From the NCBI GenBank assembly GCA_963715665.1, contig OY970263.1, positions 51,631 to 115,630 of the forward strand: DNA of 64,000 bases, given 5' to 3'. This DNA is from an uncultured Gemmatimonadales bacterium. GTDB taxonomy: Bacteria; Gemmatimonadota; Gemmatimonadetes; Gemmatimonadales; GWC2-71-9. Within the stretch, counting starts at the first letter, position 1. Every line of letters begins with the position of its first letter. The notes below the pieces were generated by a model. The model was not told the origin of the DNA and searched no databases. It saw nothing but the letters and a program-made list of their open reading frames with translations. The translations under genes and the position numbers were made by a program. This document shows positions 33,315-37,951 of the stretch, piece by piece.

Positions 33315-33578
33315 ATGGAAGACATACTCGCGATCGTATTGATCTTCGGAGGCGGCACCTGCATCGCGCTGGCGTTCTCGCCGCTCGGGCGGGCGCTGGC
33401 CGACCGGCTGCGCTACGGGAAAACGCCGCCGGTGGTGGAGAACGACCCGGCGATCTATTCCGAGATCGATCAGATGCGGGCCGAAATGAACGAGCTGCAG
33501 GAGCGCCTGGATTTTGCCGAGCGGTTGCTGGCCAAGCCGGGCGACTCCGAACTCCCGGTGCAGGGGAGTGAGCAATGA
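33315..33578 (+). CDS. array member 1: small single-TM protein with C-terminal ERLDFAERLLA helix (87 aa)
   Basis: MEDILAIVLIFGGGTCIALAFSPLGRALADRLRYG...EIDQMRAEMNELQERLDFAERLLAKPG... Stop overlaps the next start (ATGA). Confidence 0.7.
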   Translation: MEDILAIVLIFGGGTCIALAFSPLGRALADRLRYGKTPPVVENDPAIYSEIDQMRAEMNELQERLDFAERLLAKPGDSELPVQGSEQ

Positions 33579-33880
33579 CCAACGGACATCTGGCAATATT
33601 GATCATCTTCGGTGGCGGGCTGCTGGTGGCGCTGATCGCGGTCATCGCCAACAGCGACATCGGGCAGTCGATTGCCGACGCCATCCGCCACAACAGCGGC
33701 GCCAGCGAGGGCGCGGCGGTCCGGCGCGAGCTGGAGCAGATGCGGGGCAACGTCGAACAGCTGCAGACCGATGTGGAGTCGCTGCATGCGCAGCTGGGCG
33801 AGGCCCATGAGCGGCTCGATTTTGCGGAGCGGTTGCTCACCGAGCGGCACGACGCGCGCATCGAGGGACCCGGAGCATGA
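33575..33880 (+). CDS. array member 2: small single-TM protein with C-terminal ERLDFAERLL helix (101 aa)
   Basis: MTNGHLAILIIFGGGLLVALIAVIANSDIGQSIADAIRHNSG...LEQMRGNVEQLQTDVESLHAQLGEAHERLDFAERLLTERHDARIEGPGA. ATGA overlaps on both sides. Confidence 0.7.
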   Translation: MTNGHLAILIIFGGGLLVALIAVIANSDIGQSIADAIRHNSGASEGAAVRRELEQMRGNVEQLQTDVESLHAQLGEAHERLDFAERLLTERHDARIEGPGA

Positions 33881-34248
33881 CCGGCCGTCCGTGGTGGCAA
33901 CGTCCGGTCACACTGCGCACCGTCTTCTGGGGGGCGGCGGCGGCGATTCTCGGTTCGGCGGTGGCGCGCGACGGCCGCGAGCTGGCGCCCGGAATCCTGC
34001 TGGCGGTGGGCGCGCTGGTGATGCTGGCGCTGGTATTCGCATTCCACGGCGCGGTGACGCCGGCTGGCGACGAGCCGGCGGACGCGGCGGAGCTGCCACC
34101 GGCGCGACTCGACGAGATCGAAGCGCGCCTGGCCGACCAGGGTGCCCTCGAGCAGCGGTTGCTCGAATTGGAGGAGCGGCTCGACTTTGCCGAGCGGTTG
34201 CTGGCCGAGCGGCACGACGCGCGGATCGAAGGGCCGAGGGCGCCATGA
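33877..34248 (+). CDS. array member 3: two-TM protein with C-terminal EERLDFAERLLA helix (123 aa)
   Basis: ...VFWGAAAAILGSAV...ILLAVGALVMLALVFAF...LDEIEARLADQGALEQRLLELEERLDFAERLLAERHDARIEGPRAP. Confidence 0.7.
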   Translation: MTGRPWWQRPVTLRTVFWGAAAAILGSAVARDGRELAPGILLAVGALVMLALVFAFHGAVTPAGDEPADAAELPPARLDEIEARLADQGALEQRLLELEERLDFAERLLAERHDARIEGPRAP

Positions 34249-34532
34249 ACAGCTTCAACGGGAACGAACTCGCGCTTGGCATCATCATCATCGCCTTCTT
34301 TTTCGTGCGGCCGATCGCGCGGGCGTGGGCCAAGCGGCTCGACGGCAGTGCCGATCTGCACGGGCTGCGCGACGAGCTGACGCGGCTCGACGACCGGGTG
34401 GCGCAGCTGGAGGCGGAAAACGCCAGGTTGCTCGAGGTGGAAGAGCGGCTGGATTTTGCGGAACGGCTGCTGGCCGGGTCGCGGCAGGCGGACGGCAGCC
34501 CGGCGTCGCCGGTGACCGACGGGACGAGGTGA
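34245..34532 (+). CDS. array member 4: single-TM protein with C-terminal EERLDFAERLLA helix (95 aa)
   Basis: ATG 34245 (in frame within track ORF 33672-34532). MNSFNGNELALGIIIIAFFFVRPIARAWAKRLDG...LRDELTRLDDRVAQLEAENARLLEVEERLDFAERLLAGS... Confidence 0.7.
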   Translation: MNSFNGNELALGIIIIAFFFVRPIARAWAKRLDGSADLHGLRDELTRLDDRVAQLEAENARLLEVEERLDFAERLLAGSRQADGSPASPVTDGTR

Positions 34533-34537
34533 AGGCG

Positions 34538-35669: not shown

Positions 35670-35711
35670 AAGGTGCCGGACCTTGACGTGCTTATTCATT
35701 CAGAGGACTCC

Positions 35712-36098
35712 ATGACGACACGCGACGACGTGCGCTCCTTCCTGGACCGGCTCGACATGCCGGTCGAACCGGTGGCGGACGACATGTGGCTGATCCGCAC
35801 GCCGGAGGGGGCCGAACTGGTGGTGAACTACGCGCCGCCGGTGCTGCTGCTGCGGGTGCGGGTCATGCCGCTGCCCGCCGACCAGGGGCGGGCCGGCGAA
35901 CTGAGCCGCCGCCTGCTGGAATACAACGCGCGCGACTTGGTGCACGGCTCCTACGGCATCGAGGGGAGCGACATCGTGCTCAGCGACGCGCTGGAGCTGG
36001 AAAACCTGGACTTCAACGAGTTCCGCTCGAGCGTCGACTCGCTCACGCTCGCCCTTGCATCTCACGTGAGCGCTCTGGCGCCGTTCGGGGAGAGGTAA
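35712..36098 (+). CDS. YbjN-like (type III secretion chaperone-like fold) protein
   Basis: ATG 35712. MTTRDDVRSFLDRLDMPVEPVADDMWLIRTPEGAELVVNYAPPVLLLRVRVMPLP...LLEYNARDLVHGSYGIEGSDIVLSDALELENLDFNEF. The pattern is typical of the YbjN/sensory-transduction-regulator family. Assignment is by sequence pattern only. Confidence 0.55.
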   Translation: MTTRDDVRSFLDRLDMPVEPVADDMWLIRTPEGAELVVNYAPPVLLLRVRVMPLPADQGRAGELSRRLLEYNARDLVHGSYGIEGSDIVLSDALELENLDFNEFRSSVDSLTLALASHVSALAPFGER

Positions 36099-36104
36099 TC
36101 CGCC

Positions 36105-36872
36105 ATGGGGATCTTCGATCGGTTTACCACCATGCTGCGGTCGAACATCAACGACCTGATCTCGCGGGCCGAAAACCCCGAGAAGATGCTCAATCAGTTG
36201 ATCGTCGACATGCGCTCCCAGCTCGACAAGGCCCGCCAGCAGGTGGCGCAGTCGATCGCCGACGAGAAGAAGCTCGAGGCGGACTCGATCGCGATGCGGA
36301 AGCAGGCCGAGGACTGGGAACGCCGCGCCATGCTGGCGGTGCAGGAGAACCGCGACGACCTCGCCAAGCAGGCGCTGGTGCGCTACAACGAGGCGCTGCA
36401 GGGGGCGCAGCAACTGCACGAGACCTGGGCCAAGAGCAAGCAGGAGACCGAGGCGCTCAAGGCGTCGCTGCGCCAGCTCAACGACAAGATCGAAGAGGCC
36501 AAGCGCAAGAAGAACATCCTGATCGCCCGGGCCCGCCGTGCCGAGGCCCAGCAGCGCATCCAGGACACCCTCGCCGGCATGGGCGACAAGAGCGCCTTCG
36601 AGTCGTTCGAGCGGATGCAGGAGAAGATCGAGGCCAGCGAGCGGAAGGCGGTGGCCGCGGCCGAGTTGCAGCAGGAACTCACCGGCGACACGCTGCAGCG
36701 CCAATTCGAGCAGCTGGAGTACCACGGCAGCTCCGACCAGCAGCTGCTGGAGCTGAAGGCCAAGATGGGGCTCATCGCCACCGGCAAGGGCGAGGCGCCG
36801 AAGCAACTGGGCCAGGGGCAGACGCCCGCCACCCCCGCCGACAGCAGCGCCGCCGAAGATCACGGCGCGTGA
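36105..36872 (+). CDS. pspA: PspA/IM30 (phage shock protein A / Vipp1 / LiaH) family protein
   Basis: MGIFDRFTTMLRSNINDLISRAENPEKMLNQLIVDMRSQLDKARQQVAQSIADEKKLE... is the canonical PspA N-terminus. Long coiled coil, 255 aa. Confidence 0.92.
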   Translation: MGIFDRFTTMLRSNINDLISRAENPEKMLNQLIVDMRSQLDKARQQVAQSIADEKKLEADSIAMRKQAEDWERRAMLAVQENRDDLAKQALVRYNEALQGAQQLHETWAKSKQETEALKASLRQLNDKIEEAKRKKNILIARARRAEAQQRIQDTLAGMGDKSAFESFERMQEKIEASERKAVAAAELQQELTGDTLQRQFEQLEYHGSSDQQLLELKAKMGLIATGKGEAPKQLGQGQTPATPADSSAAEDHGA

Positions 36873-37951
36873 CCCGCGAGCGGGTCCTGATCATCGCCGA
36901 CGGCGATCTCGGACCGATGACGTCCAAGACCGCCAACGCGATCATCCGCTACCACCCCGAGCGGGTGGTGGCGGTGCTCGACCACCAGTTTGCCGGGCGC
37001 ACCGTCGGCGAGGTCCTCGGCTTCGGCGGCGCCATCCCGGTGGTCGGGACGATGCGCGAGGGGTTGGCGCTCGGCCCGACTATGGTACTCATTGGTATAG
37101 CGCCGATGGGGGGCCGGCTCCCGCCGGCGTGGCACGGGTGGCTGCTCGAAGCCCTCGCCGCCGGCTGCGACCTGCAGAGCGGGTTGCACACCTTTCTTGG
37201 CCACGACGCCGGGCTCGCCGCCGCGGCCCGCGCCGCGGGGCGCACCATCGACGACGTCCGACGGCCGCCGCCCGACCTGCCGGTGGCGTCGGGCCTGGCC
37301 CGCGACGTCGCGCCGCTGGTGGTGCTCACGGTCGGCACCGACTGCAACGTCGGCAAGATGACGGCGCAACTGCAGCTGGTGGAGGCGCTCAACGCCCGCG
37401 GAGCGCGCACCCGGTTTCTCGCCACCGGGCAGACCGGCATCATGATCGAGGGGTGGGGCGTCGCGGTCGACGCGGTGGTGGCGGATTTCGTCGCCGGCGC
37501 CGCCGAATGGCTGGTGCTCAAGGGGGCCGCCGAGGGTAGCCCCGACGTGCTGCTGGTCGAGGGGCAGGGGAGCATCAATCACCCGGGCTACAGCGGCGTC
37601 ACCCTGGGCCTGCTCCACGGCTCGTGCCCCGAGGCGATGATCCTCTGCCACCACGCCACCCGGCGGACCATCGGCGACTACCGGTATCCGTCGGGATTTC
37701 CCATCCCGCCGCTCCGGGAATACGTTCAGTGGTACGAGACGGCGGCGGCGATGGTCCACCCCTCCCGGGTGATCGGCATCGCCCTCAACACGTATGACAT
37801 GGACGACCTGGCAGCCCGCGCCGCCTGCCAGGCAGCGGCCGACGAAACCGGATTGGTCGCCACCGATCCGGTGCGATTCGACCCGGCCCCACTGGTCGAC
37901 GCGGTGCTGACCGCGGCTGCGGCGCGCCGCGAATCCCGGATTCCGGAGTAG
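36869..37951 (+). CDS. DUF1611-domain protein (DgcN-like, P-loop-containing)
   Basis: GTG 36869 overlaps the pspA stop (GTGA). VLTVGTDCNVGKMTAQLQL and VLLVEGQGSINHPGYSGVTLGLLHGSCP are typical of DUF1611. Only the last 360 codons of track ORF 35786-37951 are real. Confidence 0.7.
   Translation: MTRERVLIIADGDLGPMTSKTANAIIRYHPERVVAVLDHQFAGRTVGEVLGFGGAIPVVGTMREGLALGPTMVLIGIAPMGGRLPPAWHGWLLEALAAGCDLQSGLHTFLGHDAGLAAAARAAGRTIDDVRRPPPDLPVASGLARDVAPLVVLTVGTDCNVGKMTAQLQLVEALNARGARTRFLATGQTGIMIEGWGVAVDAVVADFVAGAAEWLVLKGAAEGSPDVLLVEGQGSINHPGYSGVTLGLLHGSCPEAMILCHHATRRTIGDYRYPSGFPIPPLREYVQWYETAAAMVHPSRVIGIALNTYDMDDLAARAACQAAADETGLVATDPVRFDPAPLVDAVLTAAAARRESRIPE

Follow-up and report, generated by a model that had tools for sequence, protein, structure and literature searches.

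Tandem coiled-coil membrane proteins encoded upstream of pspA in Gemmatimonadales: a large unmodelled family of putative PspB-like partners of PspA

The window (64,000 nucleotides (nt) of contig OY970263.1, from an uncultured Gemmatimonadales bacterium) carries at 33315-35669, on the plus strand, seven back-to-back open reading frames (ORFs) that encode small membrane proteins of 87, 101, 123, 95, 117, 129 and 130 amino acids (aa). The genes of this array are the 5′ part of a conserved operon, in which they are followed by a CesT/Tir-like gene, pspA and a DUF1611 gene. According to their sequences, the seven proteins belong to one large family that is covered by no Pfam or NCBIfam model and is known so far only in Gemmatimonadales. 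On balance, they are probably PspB-like oligomeric membrane adaptors or sensors that would act as the membrane partners of PspA in the known CesT/Tir-PspA module. To our knowledge, the membrane targeting of PspA/IM30/Vipp1 polymers (bacterial ESCRT-III) is understood only for a few models, namely PspBC, LiaI and PspM.

The link to pspA is the most conserved feature of the locus. The locus set consists of the best 80 loci found by scanning a single genome for each GTDB species, chosen as the top matches to member 1 (the first protein of the array); the context survey covers 85 loci. Co-occurrence with pspA, which had been set beforehand as a test of the original prediction, was found in every testable locus: wherever enough flanking sequence is available, pspA lies downstream of the array, on the same strand and within 2.5 kb (62/62 loci), and this holds over PspA identities of 60-95%. 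A CesT-like gene is found between the array and pspA in 56/62 loci and DUF1611 follows pspA in 49/51, whereas sdaAA is encoded upstream of the array in only 31/58 loci. The array-pspA link is thus tighter than general synteny. Independent look-ups of exact proteins (P0016, P0114 and P0098) led to the same context. In three loci (L004, L041 and L061), the gap between array and pspA is only 119-199 nt, which leaves no space for a CesT-like gene, and the invariant motif of the array proteins is retained. This argues against the CesT/YbjN-like protein as an obligatory partner.

Motif-bearing ORFs always lie in tandem on one strand. The 59 complete arrays hold 2-13 members; the seven copies, which had been regarded as unusual for psp loci, are therefore normal in this family. 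The junctions among 464 members are most commonly of -4 nt (149 cases), then of -1 nt (62 cases), a prevalence that points to translational coupling. In the window, the junctions are, in order, -4, -4, -4, +5, -4 and -1 nt, and a motif scan of the whole 64 kb gives seven matches, all on the plus strand, which are the array members only. The composition of the arrays changes fast: the order of seven members is found only in the close relatives L001 and L002, and elsewhere paralogs are duplicated or lost.

Because long spurious ORFs are common in a genome of about 70% GC, the coding status of the seven ORFs was tested. In all seven, the GC content is 0.80-0.89 at the third codon position (GC3) versus 0.41-0.52 at the second one (GC2). 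The ratio of non-synonymous to synonymous substitution (dN/dS), calculated against the orthologs of locus L001, is 0.11-0.24 for the seven genes (0.14 for member 1) and 0.07 for PspA. The ORFs, with the sizes and junctions originally predicted, are real genes, and the evolution of their proteins is two to four times as fast as that of PspA. The long ORFs (300-721 aa) at 33313-34215 (-), 33908-34858 (-), 35700-36863 (-) and 35786-37951 (+), which are antisense or out of frame to the array and pspA, are typical artefacts of a 70% GC content and not genes.

As had been supposed, the conserved motif falls in no named domain: none of the Pfam and NCBIfam models attains its cutoff on the seven proteins. 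A profile of the seven proteins matched at least 7,400 clusters at 90% identity in a collection of 5.8 billion proteins; among those matches listed, none carries a Pfam domain and all named ones come from Gemmatimonadales. When 1.84 billion representatives were searched exhaustively with HMMER, 3,202 clusters at 50% identity were found (E≤1e-3; 1,089 at E≤1e-10). The scan of one genome per GTDB species gave at least 453 confirmed matches. The best 80 loci are all from metagenome-assembled genomes (MAGs) of Gemmatimonadota, mostly Gemmatimonadales, save L054 ('bacterium HR33', unclassified at NCBI). Among them is L040, from an uncultured Gemmatimonas sp., in which an array likewise adjoins pspA. 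Member 1 is a 100% match to database protein P0053.

A few members are misnamed in JGI records ('PilO', 'efflux pump', 'V-ATPase'). The profile search of PDB sequences for solved relatives gave only coiled-coil noise (E≥0.034). A phage or defence origin was rejected: the IMG/VR contigs gave 98 pattern matches, of which 0 were confirmed, and no family match was found in PADLOC or PHROGs. Some database entries (P0004, P0007, P0010, P0267 and P0349) resemble fusions of two or three family modules. They were not used, as the modules are separated by frameshifted junk in most of them, a sign of probable assembly errors or pseudogenes. In P0004, the modules are fused cleanly and in frame, yet the topology of the product would be implausible.

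The near-invariant C-terminal motif of the original prediction is recovered as invariant columns in the alignment of the seven proteins (M1, E, E-R, D-F, E-R-L-L). Family-wide, the invariant end reads E-R-[LV]-D-F-[AT]-E-R-[LM]-L. In a motif-anchored logo of 442 sequences, E0, R1, F4, E6 and R7 are conserved at 100%, D3 at 94% and L9 at 97%. The hydrophobic positions of this logo (-12, -9, -5, -2, +2, +5, +9) form a continuing heptad core, relative to which E0, D3, F4 and R7 occupy heptad positions f, b, c and f (i, i+3, i+4, i+7), that is, one exposed stripe; R1 is at g and E6 at e. A strict R-hxxhE at -6 to -1, in register with the core, is found in 246/441 members, including members 3-7 of the window (5/7). 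R-hxxhE, for Arg(g)-h(a)-x-x-h(d)-Glu(e), is a motif of parallel trimeric coiled coils (PMC3653964). The conserved segment, described originally as a common docking helix, moreover terminates a heptad coiled coil that carries R-hxxhE. It is thus probably a self-association module that displays an exposed invariant patch, rather than a mere docking helix.

Gene conversion was considered as a source of this invariance and was rejected. Across the seven paralogs, no invariant column of the motif is encoded by fewer than two synonymous codons, and the codons differ in 45% of the pairs that specify a same residue; the motif is therefore upheld by selection. The pair formed by members 2 and 3 alone suggests a recent duplication or a local gene conversion: a 3′ stretch of 62 nt, which spans the motif and the tail ERHDARIEGP, is 89% identical between them (33809-33870 and 34174-34235). 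Over that stretch, the other paralog pairs of the same repeat family show 63-68% identity to the reference copy.

Family members are mostly of 80-130 aa. The 422 distinct members with one or two transmembrane segments (TMs) divide into 349 with a single TM and 73 with two; among all 464 members called, these numbers are 353 and 75. The 1-TM members have on average 0.26 Lys + Arg in the 15 residues before the TM versus 2.7 in the 15 residues after it, and 91% of them obey the positive-inside rule. The 2-TM members have a basic N-tail and a basic flank after TM2, and their 5-residue loop is not basic. The N-termini are acidic or neutral, and so are not signal peptides. From the charge distribution, the topology is predicted to be N-out/C-in, which places the conserved helix in the cytoplasm, as the original prediction had it. 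The basic segments that follow the TMs are present in members 1, 2, 4, 6 and 7, and the spacer is of variable length, both as claimed: the TM-to-motif distance is 27-81 residues (median 41). The tail past the motif has a median length of 14 residues. Pro-rich N-tails of at least 20 aa are found in 36 members. The AlphaFold2 model of member 1, made with 121 sequences, has helices at 2-21, 23-33 and 45-73 (mean predicted local distance difference test score (pLDDT) 79). These correspond to the TM helix, a short helix and, after a linker of low confidence, a long helix, with a pLDDT of 94-96 across the motif. Read from the sequences, each protein starts with a variable N-terminal/TM part, in many cases followed by a basic juxtamembrane helix; a cytoplasmic stalk, a heptad coiled coil that differs in length between proteins, then leads to the invariant end.

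If the array proteins are PspB-like adaptors or sensors, they would oligomerise, offer a docking surface to a partner and take part in a stress response. The stalks would associate with one another in a parallel orientation, and R-hxxhE may make homo- or hetero-trimers of them. This association would hold the exposed E0/D3/F4/R7 patch about 40 residues off the membrane, at a distance that differs between paralogs. The patch would bind a common partner and could recruit, nucleate or regulate PspA, or the CesT-like chaperone, at the membrane. Divergent TM/periplasmic parts and differing spacers would give the paralogs different sensing inputs. Either PspA or the CesT/YbjN-like protein may dock onto the invariant helix. 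PspA is the most likely partner, as pspA is the sole gene present in every locus, and the CesT-like protein is a less likely one, as it is dispensable in three loci.

The array proteins resemble PspB in architecture, putative topology and context. Both are proteins of about 75-130 aa encoded with pspA, with a single N-terminal TM, an N-out/C-in orientation and a cytoplasmic helical C-terminus carrying R-h-x-x-L-E ... L-D. PspB differs by its conserved P-x-W-R tail (P69, W71), which is absent from the array family, and the array family has its own invariant D-F...E-R-L-L, whose Phe is absent from PspB. The array family is found as 2-13 tandem paralogs, some with two TMs or Pro-rich N-tails. The array is upstream of pspA, the reverse of the pspABC order, and neither pspC nor pspF is nearby. 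That the array proteins are true, very divergent PspB homologs, and thus a known family that was multiplied in Gemmatimonadales and that signals to and stabilises the PspA machinery, is suggested by several comparisons but is somewhat less likely than not. PspB (TIGR02976) is the commonest weak NCBIfam match (55/121 members at E≤1; best E=1.3e-4; none confident). With shuffles of the cytoplasmic helix that preserve heptad class, its matches drop to 4/110, so that the resemblance rests on residue order and not on composition or periodicity alone. RacA and SlyX-like also leave the top matches on shuffling, so that the PspB signal is not unique. GspM, RacA, SlyX-like, MtrG and CcmI were treated as generic TM or coiled-coil resemblances; among these weak matches, RacA, SlyX-like and MtrG drop from the most frequent ones on shuffling and CcmI, driven by the TM, persists. 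The first PspB profile included Enterobacterales only. A tblastn search of plasmids added only Aeromonas, and the profile was rebuilt from Aeromonas-seeded matches. In hhalign, the narrow enterobacterial profile gave a probability of 6%, and the diverse one (Escherichia, Aeromonas and divergent clades) a probability of 36% (P=3.7e-4, score 26.3), by pairing R-V-x-E-L-E-E-R-L-D of the family with R56-I-x-x-L-E-x-I-L-D65 of PspB. Column shuffles that keep heptad class scored 16.5 +/- 3.3, and 4/250 of them reached the real score (empirical p ~0.016), versus 0/250 free shuffles. PspB is rare outside Proteobacteria and occasional PspB duplications, including within operons, are known (PMC11237479). 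Against homology, all scores are far under curated cutoffs, and the Pfam model of PspB (PF06667) matches only 8/121 members (best E=0.12). E. coli PspB scores 4.7 bits with the family hidden Markov model (HMM), which 143/2000 shuffles equal. The registers given by HMMER and hhalign differ by one heptad, as is typical of a coiled-coil resemblance. As for the analogy with PspB made originally, PspB is the known family nearest in architecture and gives the top weak sequence match, and 'analogous' may have to be replaced by 'distantly homologous'.

Three further explanations give PspA a smaller part or none. The paralogs could form a hetero-oligomeric coiled-coil membrane complex that acts independently of PspA, the adjacency of pspA reflecting co-regulation under envelope stress. 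The -4/-1 coupling suggests balanced co-production, the heptad core and R-hxxhE suggest self-association, and the copy number is highly variable. However, the invariant residues are at exposed b, c and f positions, which a self-packing core does not need, and pspA is constant where other neighbours vary, so that such a complex is considered unlikely. Even less probable is that the invariant helix serves the CesT/Tir-like chaperone, and not PspA, as a client or binding site; the chaperone would then bridge to PspA or control the small proteins. The position of the CesT-like gene directly after the array in most loci agrees with it, as do the role of CesT/Tir domains in protein-protein interactions and their pairing with PspA (PMC11237479), but the three loci with no room for this gene keep the motif. 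Finally, the linkage could reflect phylogenetic inertia within one order, the small proteins having an unrelated membrane function. The taxonomic range given above and a wider synteny (UvrA, DPP-IV, sdaAB) that is partly conserved as well are in favour of inertia. This last explanation is held to be very improbable given the strictness of the pspA adjacency compared with that of the upstream neighbour, the constant strand, the tight spacing, and arrays that grow and shrink but are never parted from pspA.

Several observations weigh against the reading of the array proteins as PspB-like partners of PspA. The best window protein scores 15.3 bits with TIGR02976, for a cutoff of 51.7. In the second R-xx-x-E unit, the d position is taken by Ala or Thr, which the motif as published does not allow. 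Member 3 has an ambiguous topology, with a basic N-terminus and an acidic stretch past its clear TM segment. No Pfam domain of PspC or of PspF/sigma-54 activators was found within 7-10 kb on either side in L081-L085, and no sigma-54 -24/-12 site was matched upstream of member 1 (33180-33314). UvrA, DPP-IV and sdaAB recur near the psp locus in other loci; as the loci are from one order, part of the linkage is possibly inherited synteny. The loci are the best matches to member 1, so that family copies may be present elsewhere in the genomes.

LiaI of Bacillus anchors the PspA homolog LiaH at the membrane. Like the array proteins, for which an anchor role is also proposed, it is a small membrane protein encoded directly upstream of a PspA homolog. 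LiaI is a small TM protein of the lia operon and LiaI-LiaF-TM is a 4-TM region (PMC11237479), whereas the array proteins have 1-2 TMs and a long coiled coil. No LiaI/LiaF-type family appears in the tables for the seven proteins or among the top 25 Pfam families of 121 members, and no LiaFSR gene was found near the psp loci looked up. PspC (PF04024) is likewise absent from the Pfam tables of the seven proteins (E≤1) and from the top 25 Pfam families of the 121 members. PspM (Rv2743c) of actinobacteria is comparable as a lineage-specific membrane protein that replaces PspB/C beside pspA. It differs by being encoded by a single-copy gene, and the array loci are without ClgR or PspN context. The PspM models NF047839 and PF25587 match 4 and 3/121 members, respectively (E≥0.011), and 2/110 shuffled decoys match as well.

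The gene called YbjN-like in the original prediction encodes the CesT/Tir partner of PspA that is known from Ravi et al. 2024 (PMC11237479). This survey of PSP systems describes the CesT/Tir-PspA dyad and three classes of operons based on that dyad; these operon groups add band-7/flotillin, AAA+, YqiJ, spermine-synthase or ATP-grasp genes. The window holds exactly this co-oriented pair (PF22550 and PF04012), which is kept in 56/62 loci. The published operon groups differ by being without tandem small single-pass proteins or DUF1611 (PMC11237479). The main text of this paper mentions neither Gemmatimonadetes nor DUF1611, and searches of full-text literature for PspA with DUF1611 and for PspA with Gemmatimonadota found nothing.

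Features of the psp locus in the window. Positions are those of the window. TM, transmembrane segment; E, E-value of the Pfam match.
Feature	Position	Strand	Description
Member 1	33315..33578	+	87 aa; N-terminal TM, basic juxtamembrane helix PLGRALADRLRYG, coiled coil, QERLDFAERLLA
Member 2	33575..33880	+	101 aa; 1 TM, SDIGQSIADAIRH segment, HERLDFAERLLT; 4-nt overlap with member 1
Member 3	33877..34248	+	123 aa; basic N-terminus, one clear and one weak hydrophobic segment; without basic juxtamembrane motif; R-LLELE and ERLDFAERLLA
Member 4	34245..34532	+	95 aa; 1 TM, PIARAWAKRLDG, R-LLEVE and ERLDFAERLLA
Member 5	34538..34891	+	117 aa from ATG 34538; 1 TM, R-LAELE and ERVDFAERLLA
Member 6	34888..35277	+	129 aa; 2 TM, PVGRGIARMLEGG, R-LMEVE and ERLDFAERLLA
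Member 7	35277..35669	+	130 aa; 2 TM, PFGKALSTRVAG, R-LGELE and ERVDFSERLLA
CesT/Tir-like (YbjN-clan) chaperone-like protein	35712..36098	+	128 aa; PF22550 CesT_Tir_1 E=3e-26
PspA/IM30	36105..36872	+	255 aa; PF04012 E=4e-48; canonical N-terminal amphipathic helix
DUF1611 protein	36869..37951	+	360 aa; PF07755 E=6e-71, PF17396 E=7e-23; Rossmann-like N domain and P-loop C domain

Two starts in the table have alternatives. For member 5, an in-frame GTG at 34529 gives 120 aa and a -4 overlap (GTGA) with the stop of member 4; since this overlap resembles most family junctions, ATG 34538 is maybe not the true start. For the CesT-like gene, there is an in-frame GTG at 35673. From ATG 35712, the gap to member 7 is 42 nt and not 43 as originally predicted; the three downstream genes and the overlap of pspA with DUF1611 are as described then. 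The YbjN model matches the CesT-like protein under its cutoff (E=0.0098). The CesT-like gene and pspA are 6 nt apart. PspA of the window matches TIGR02977 with E=2e-40, short of the equivalog cutoff. The start of DUF1611 (GTG 36869) overlaps the pspA stop as GTGA, as checked on the sequence, and the DgcN model gives 269 bits on the DUF1611 protein, below its cutoff of 480.

In one locus of a more divergent subclade (L075), a gene of the AI-2E transporter family (12073-13203; PF01594, E=1.5e-47) has on one side pspA, whose stop it overlaps, and on the other DUF1611. In L035, L061, L062, L070, L073, L077 and L079, pspA and DUF1611 are likewise separated, by gaps of 1.1-2.9 kb; the content was read for the gap of L075 only. 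In the window, DUF1611 is followed by a gene for a 161-aa multi-pass membrane protein without Pfam match (37957-38442). It is probably outside the conserved module, as a same-strand match after DUF1611 is found in only 4/80 loci (L001, L002, L003 and L028). Further downstream, a respiratory cluster on the minus strand (38449-44943) encodes a cytochrome b/c fusion, a Rieske protein, Caa3_CtaG and COX3; its long ORF at 41938-44943 is, by reading only, a candidate cytochrome c oxidase subunit I. This cluster is not kept beside the psp locus in the other MAGs looked up, where cbb3/FixGHIS genes are found instead. Upstream of the array, an 84-aa ORF without Pfam match (31372-31626) directly precedes sdaAB. 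In the related loci L082-L085, a called gene of 71 aa, also without Pfam match, is found at that place. The search for regulatory signals found no sigma-70 promoter. Terminator-like matches are few and uninformative (5, of which four are on the minus strand, versus 2.4 expected from shuffles), and no Rfam family was matched in 31000-38600.

A bolder and rather improbable extension of the PspA-partner reading is that the arrays are fast-evolving combinatorial sensors. Their proteins would hetero-oligomerise, their outward and TM parts would diversify by gene birth and death, and their shared patch would nucleate the polymerisation of PspA at a specific membrane insult. In that case, they would be bacterial equivalents of the nucleators of ESCRT-III and would have no relation to PspB/C, and DUF1611 would be an enzymatic component of the system that has so far gone unrecognised.

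What is new here is a lineage-specific, expanded and unannotated family of putative PspB-like partners, of at least 3,200 clusters at 50% identity. Its signature is clean: a strict linkage to pspA, an exposed invariant E..DF..R patch on a predicted coiled-coil stalk and 2-13 paralogs per locus. A new family model is justified and would give a consistent name to thousands of 'hypothetical proteins', some of which are misnamed. The invariant residues are direct targets for mutation, and the variation in copy number amounts to a natural experiment. With this locus, a new type of operon, one that includes DUF1611, is added to those known for the CesT/Tir-PspA dyad.

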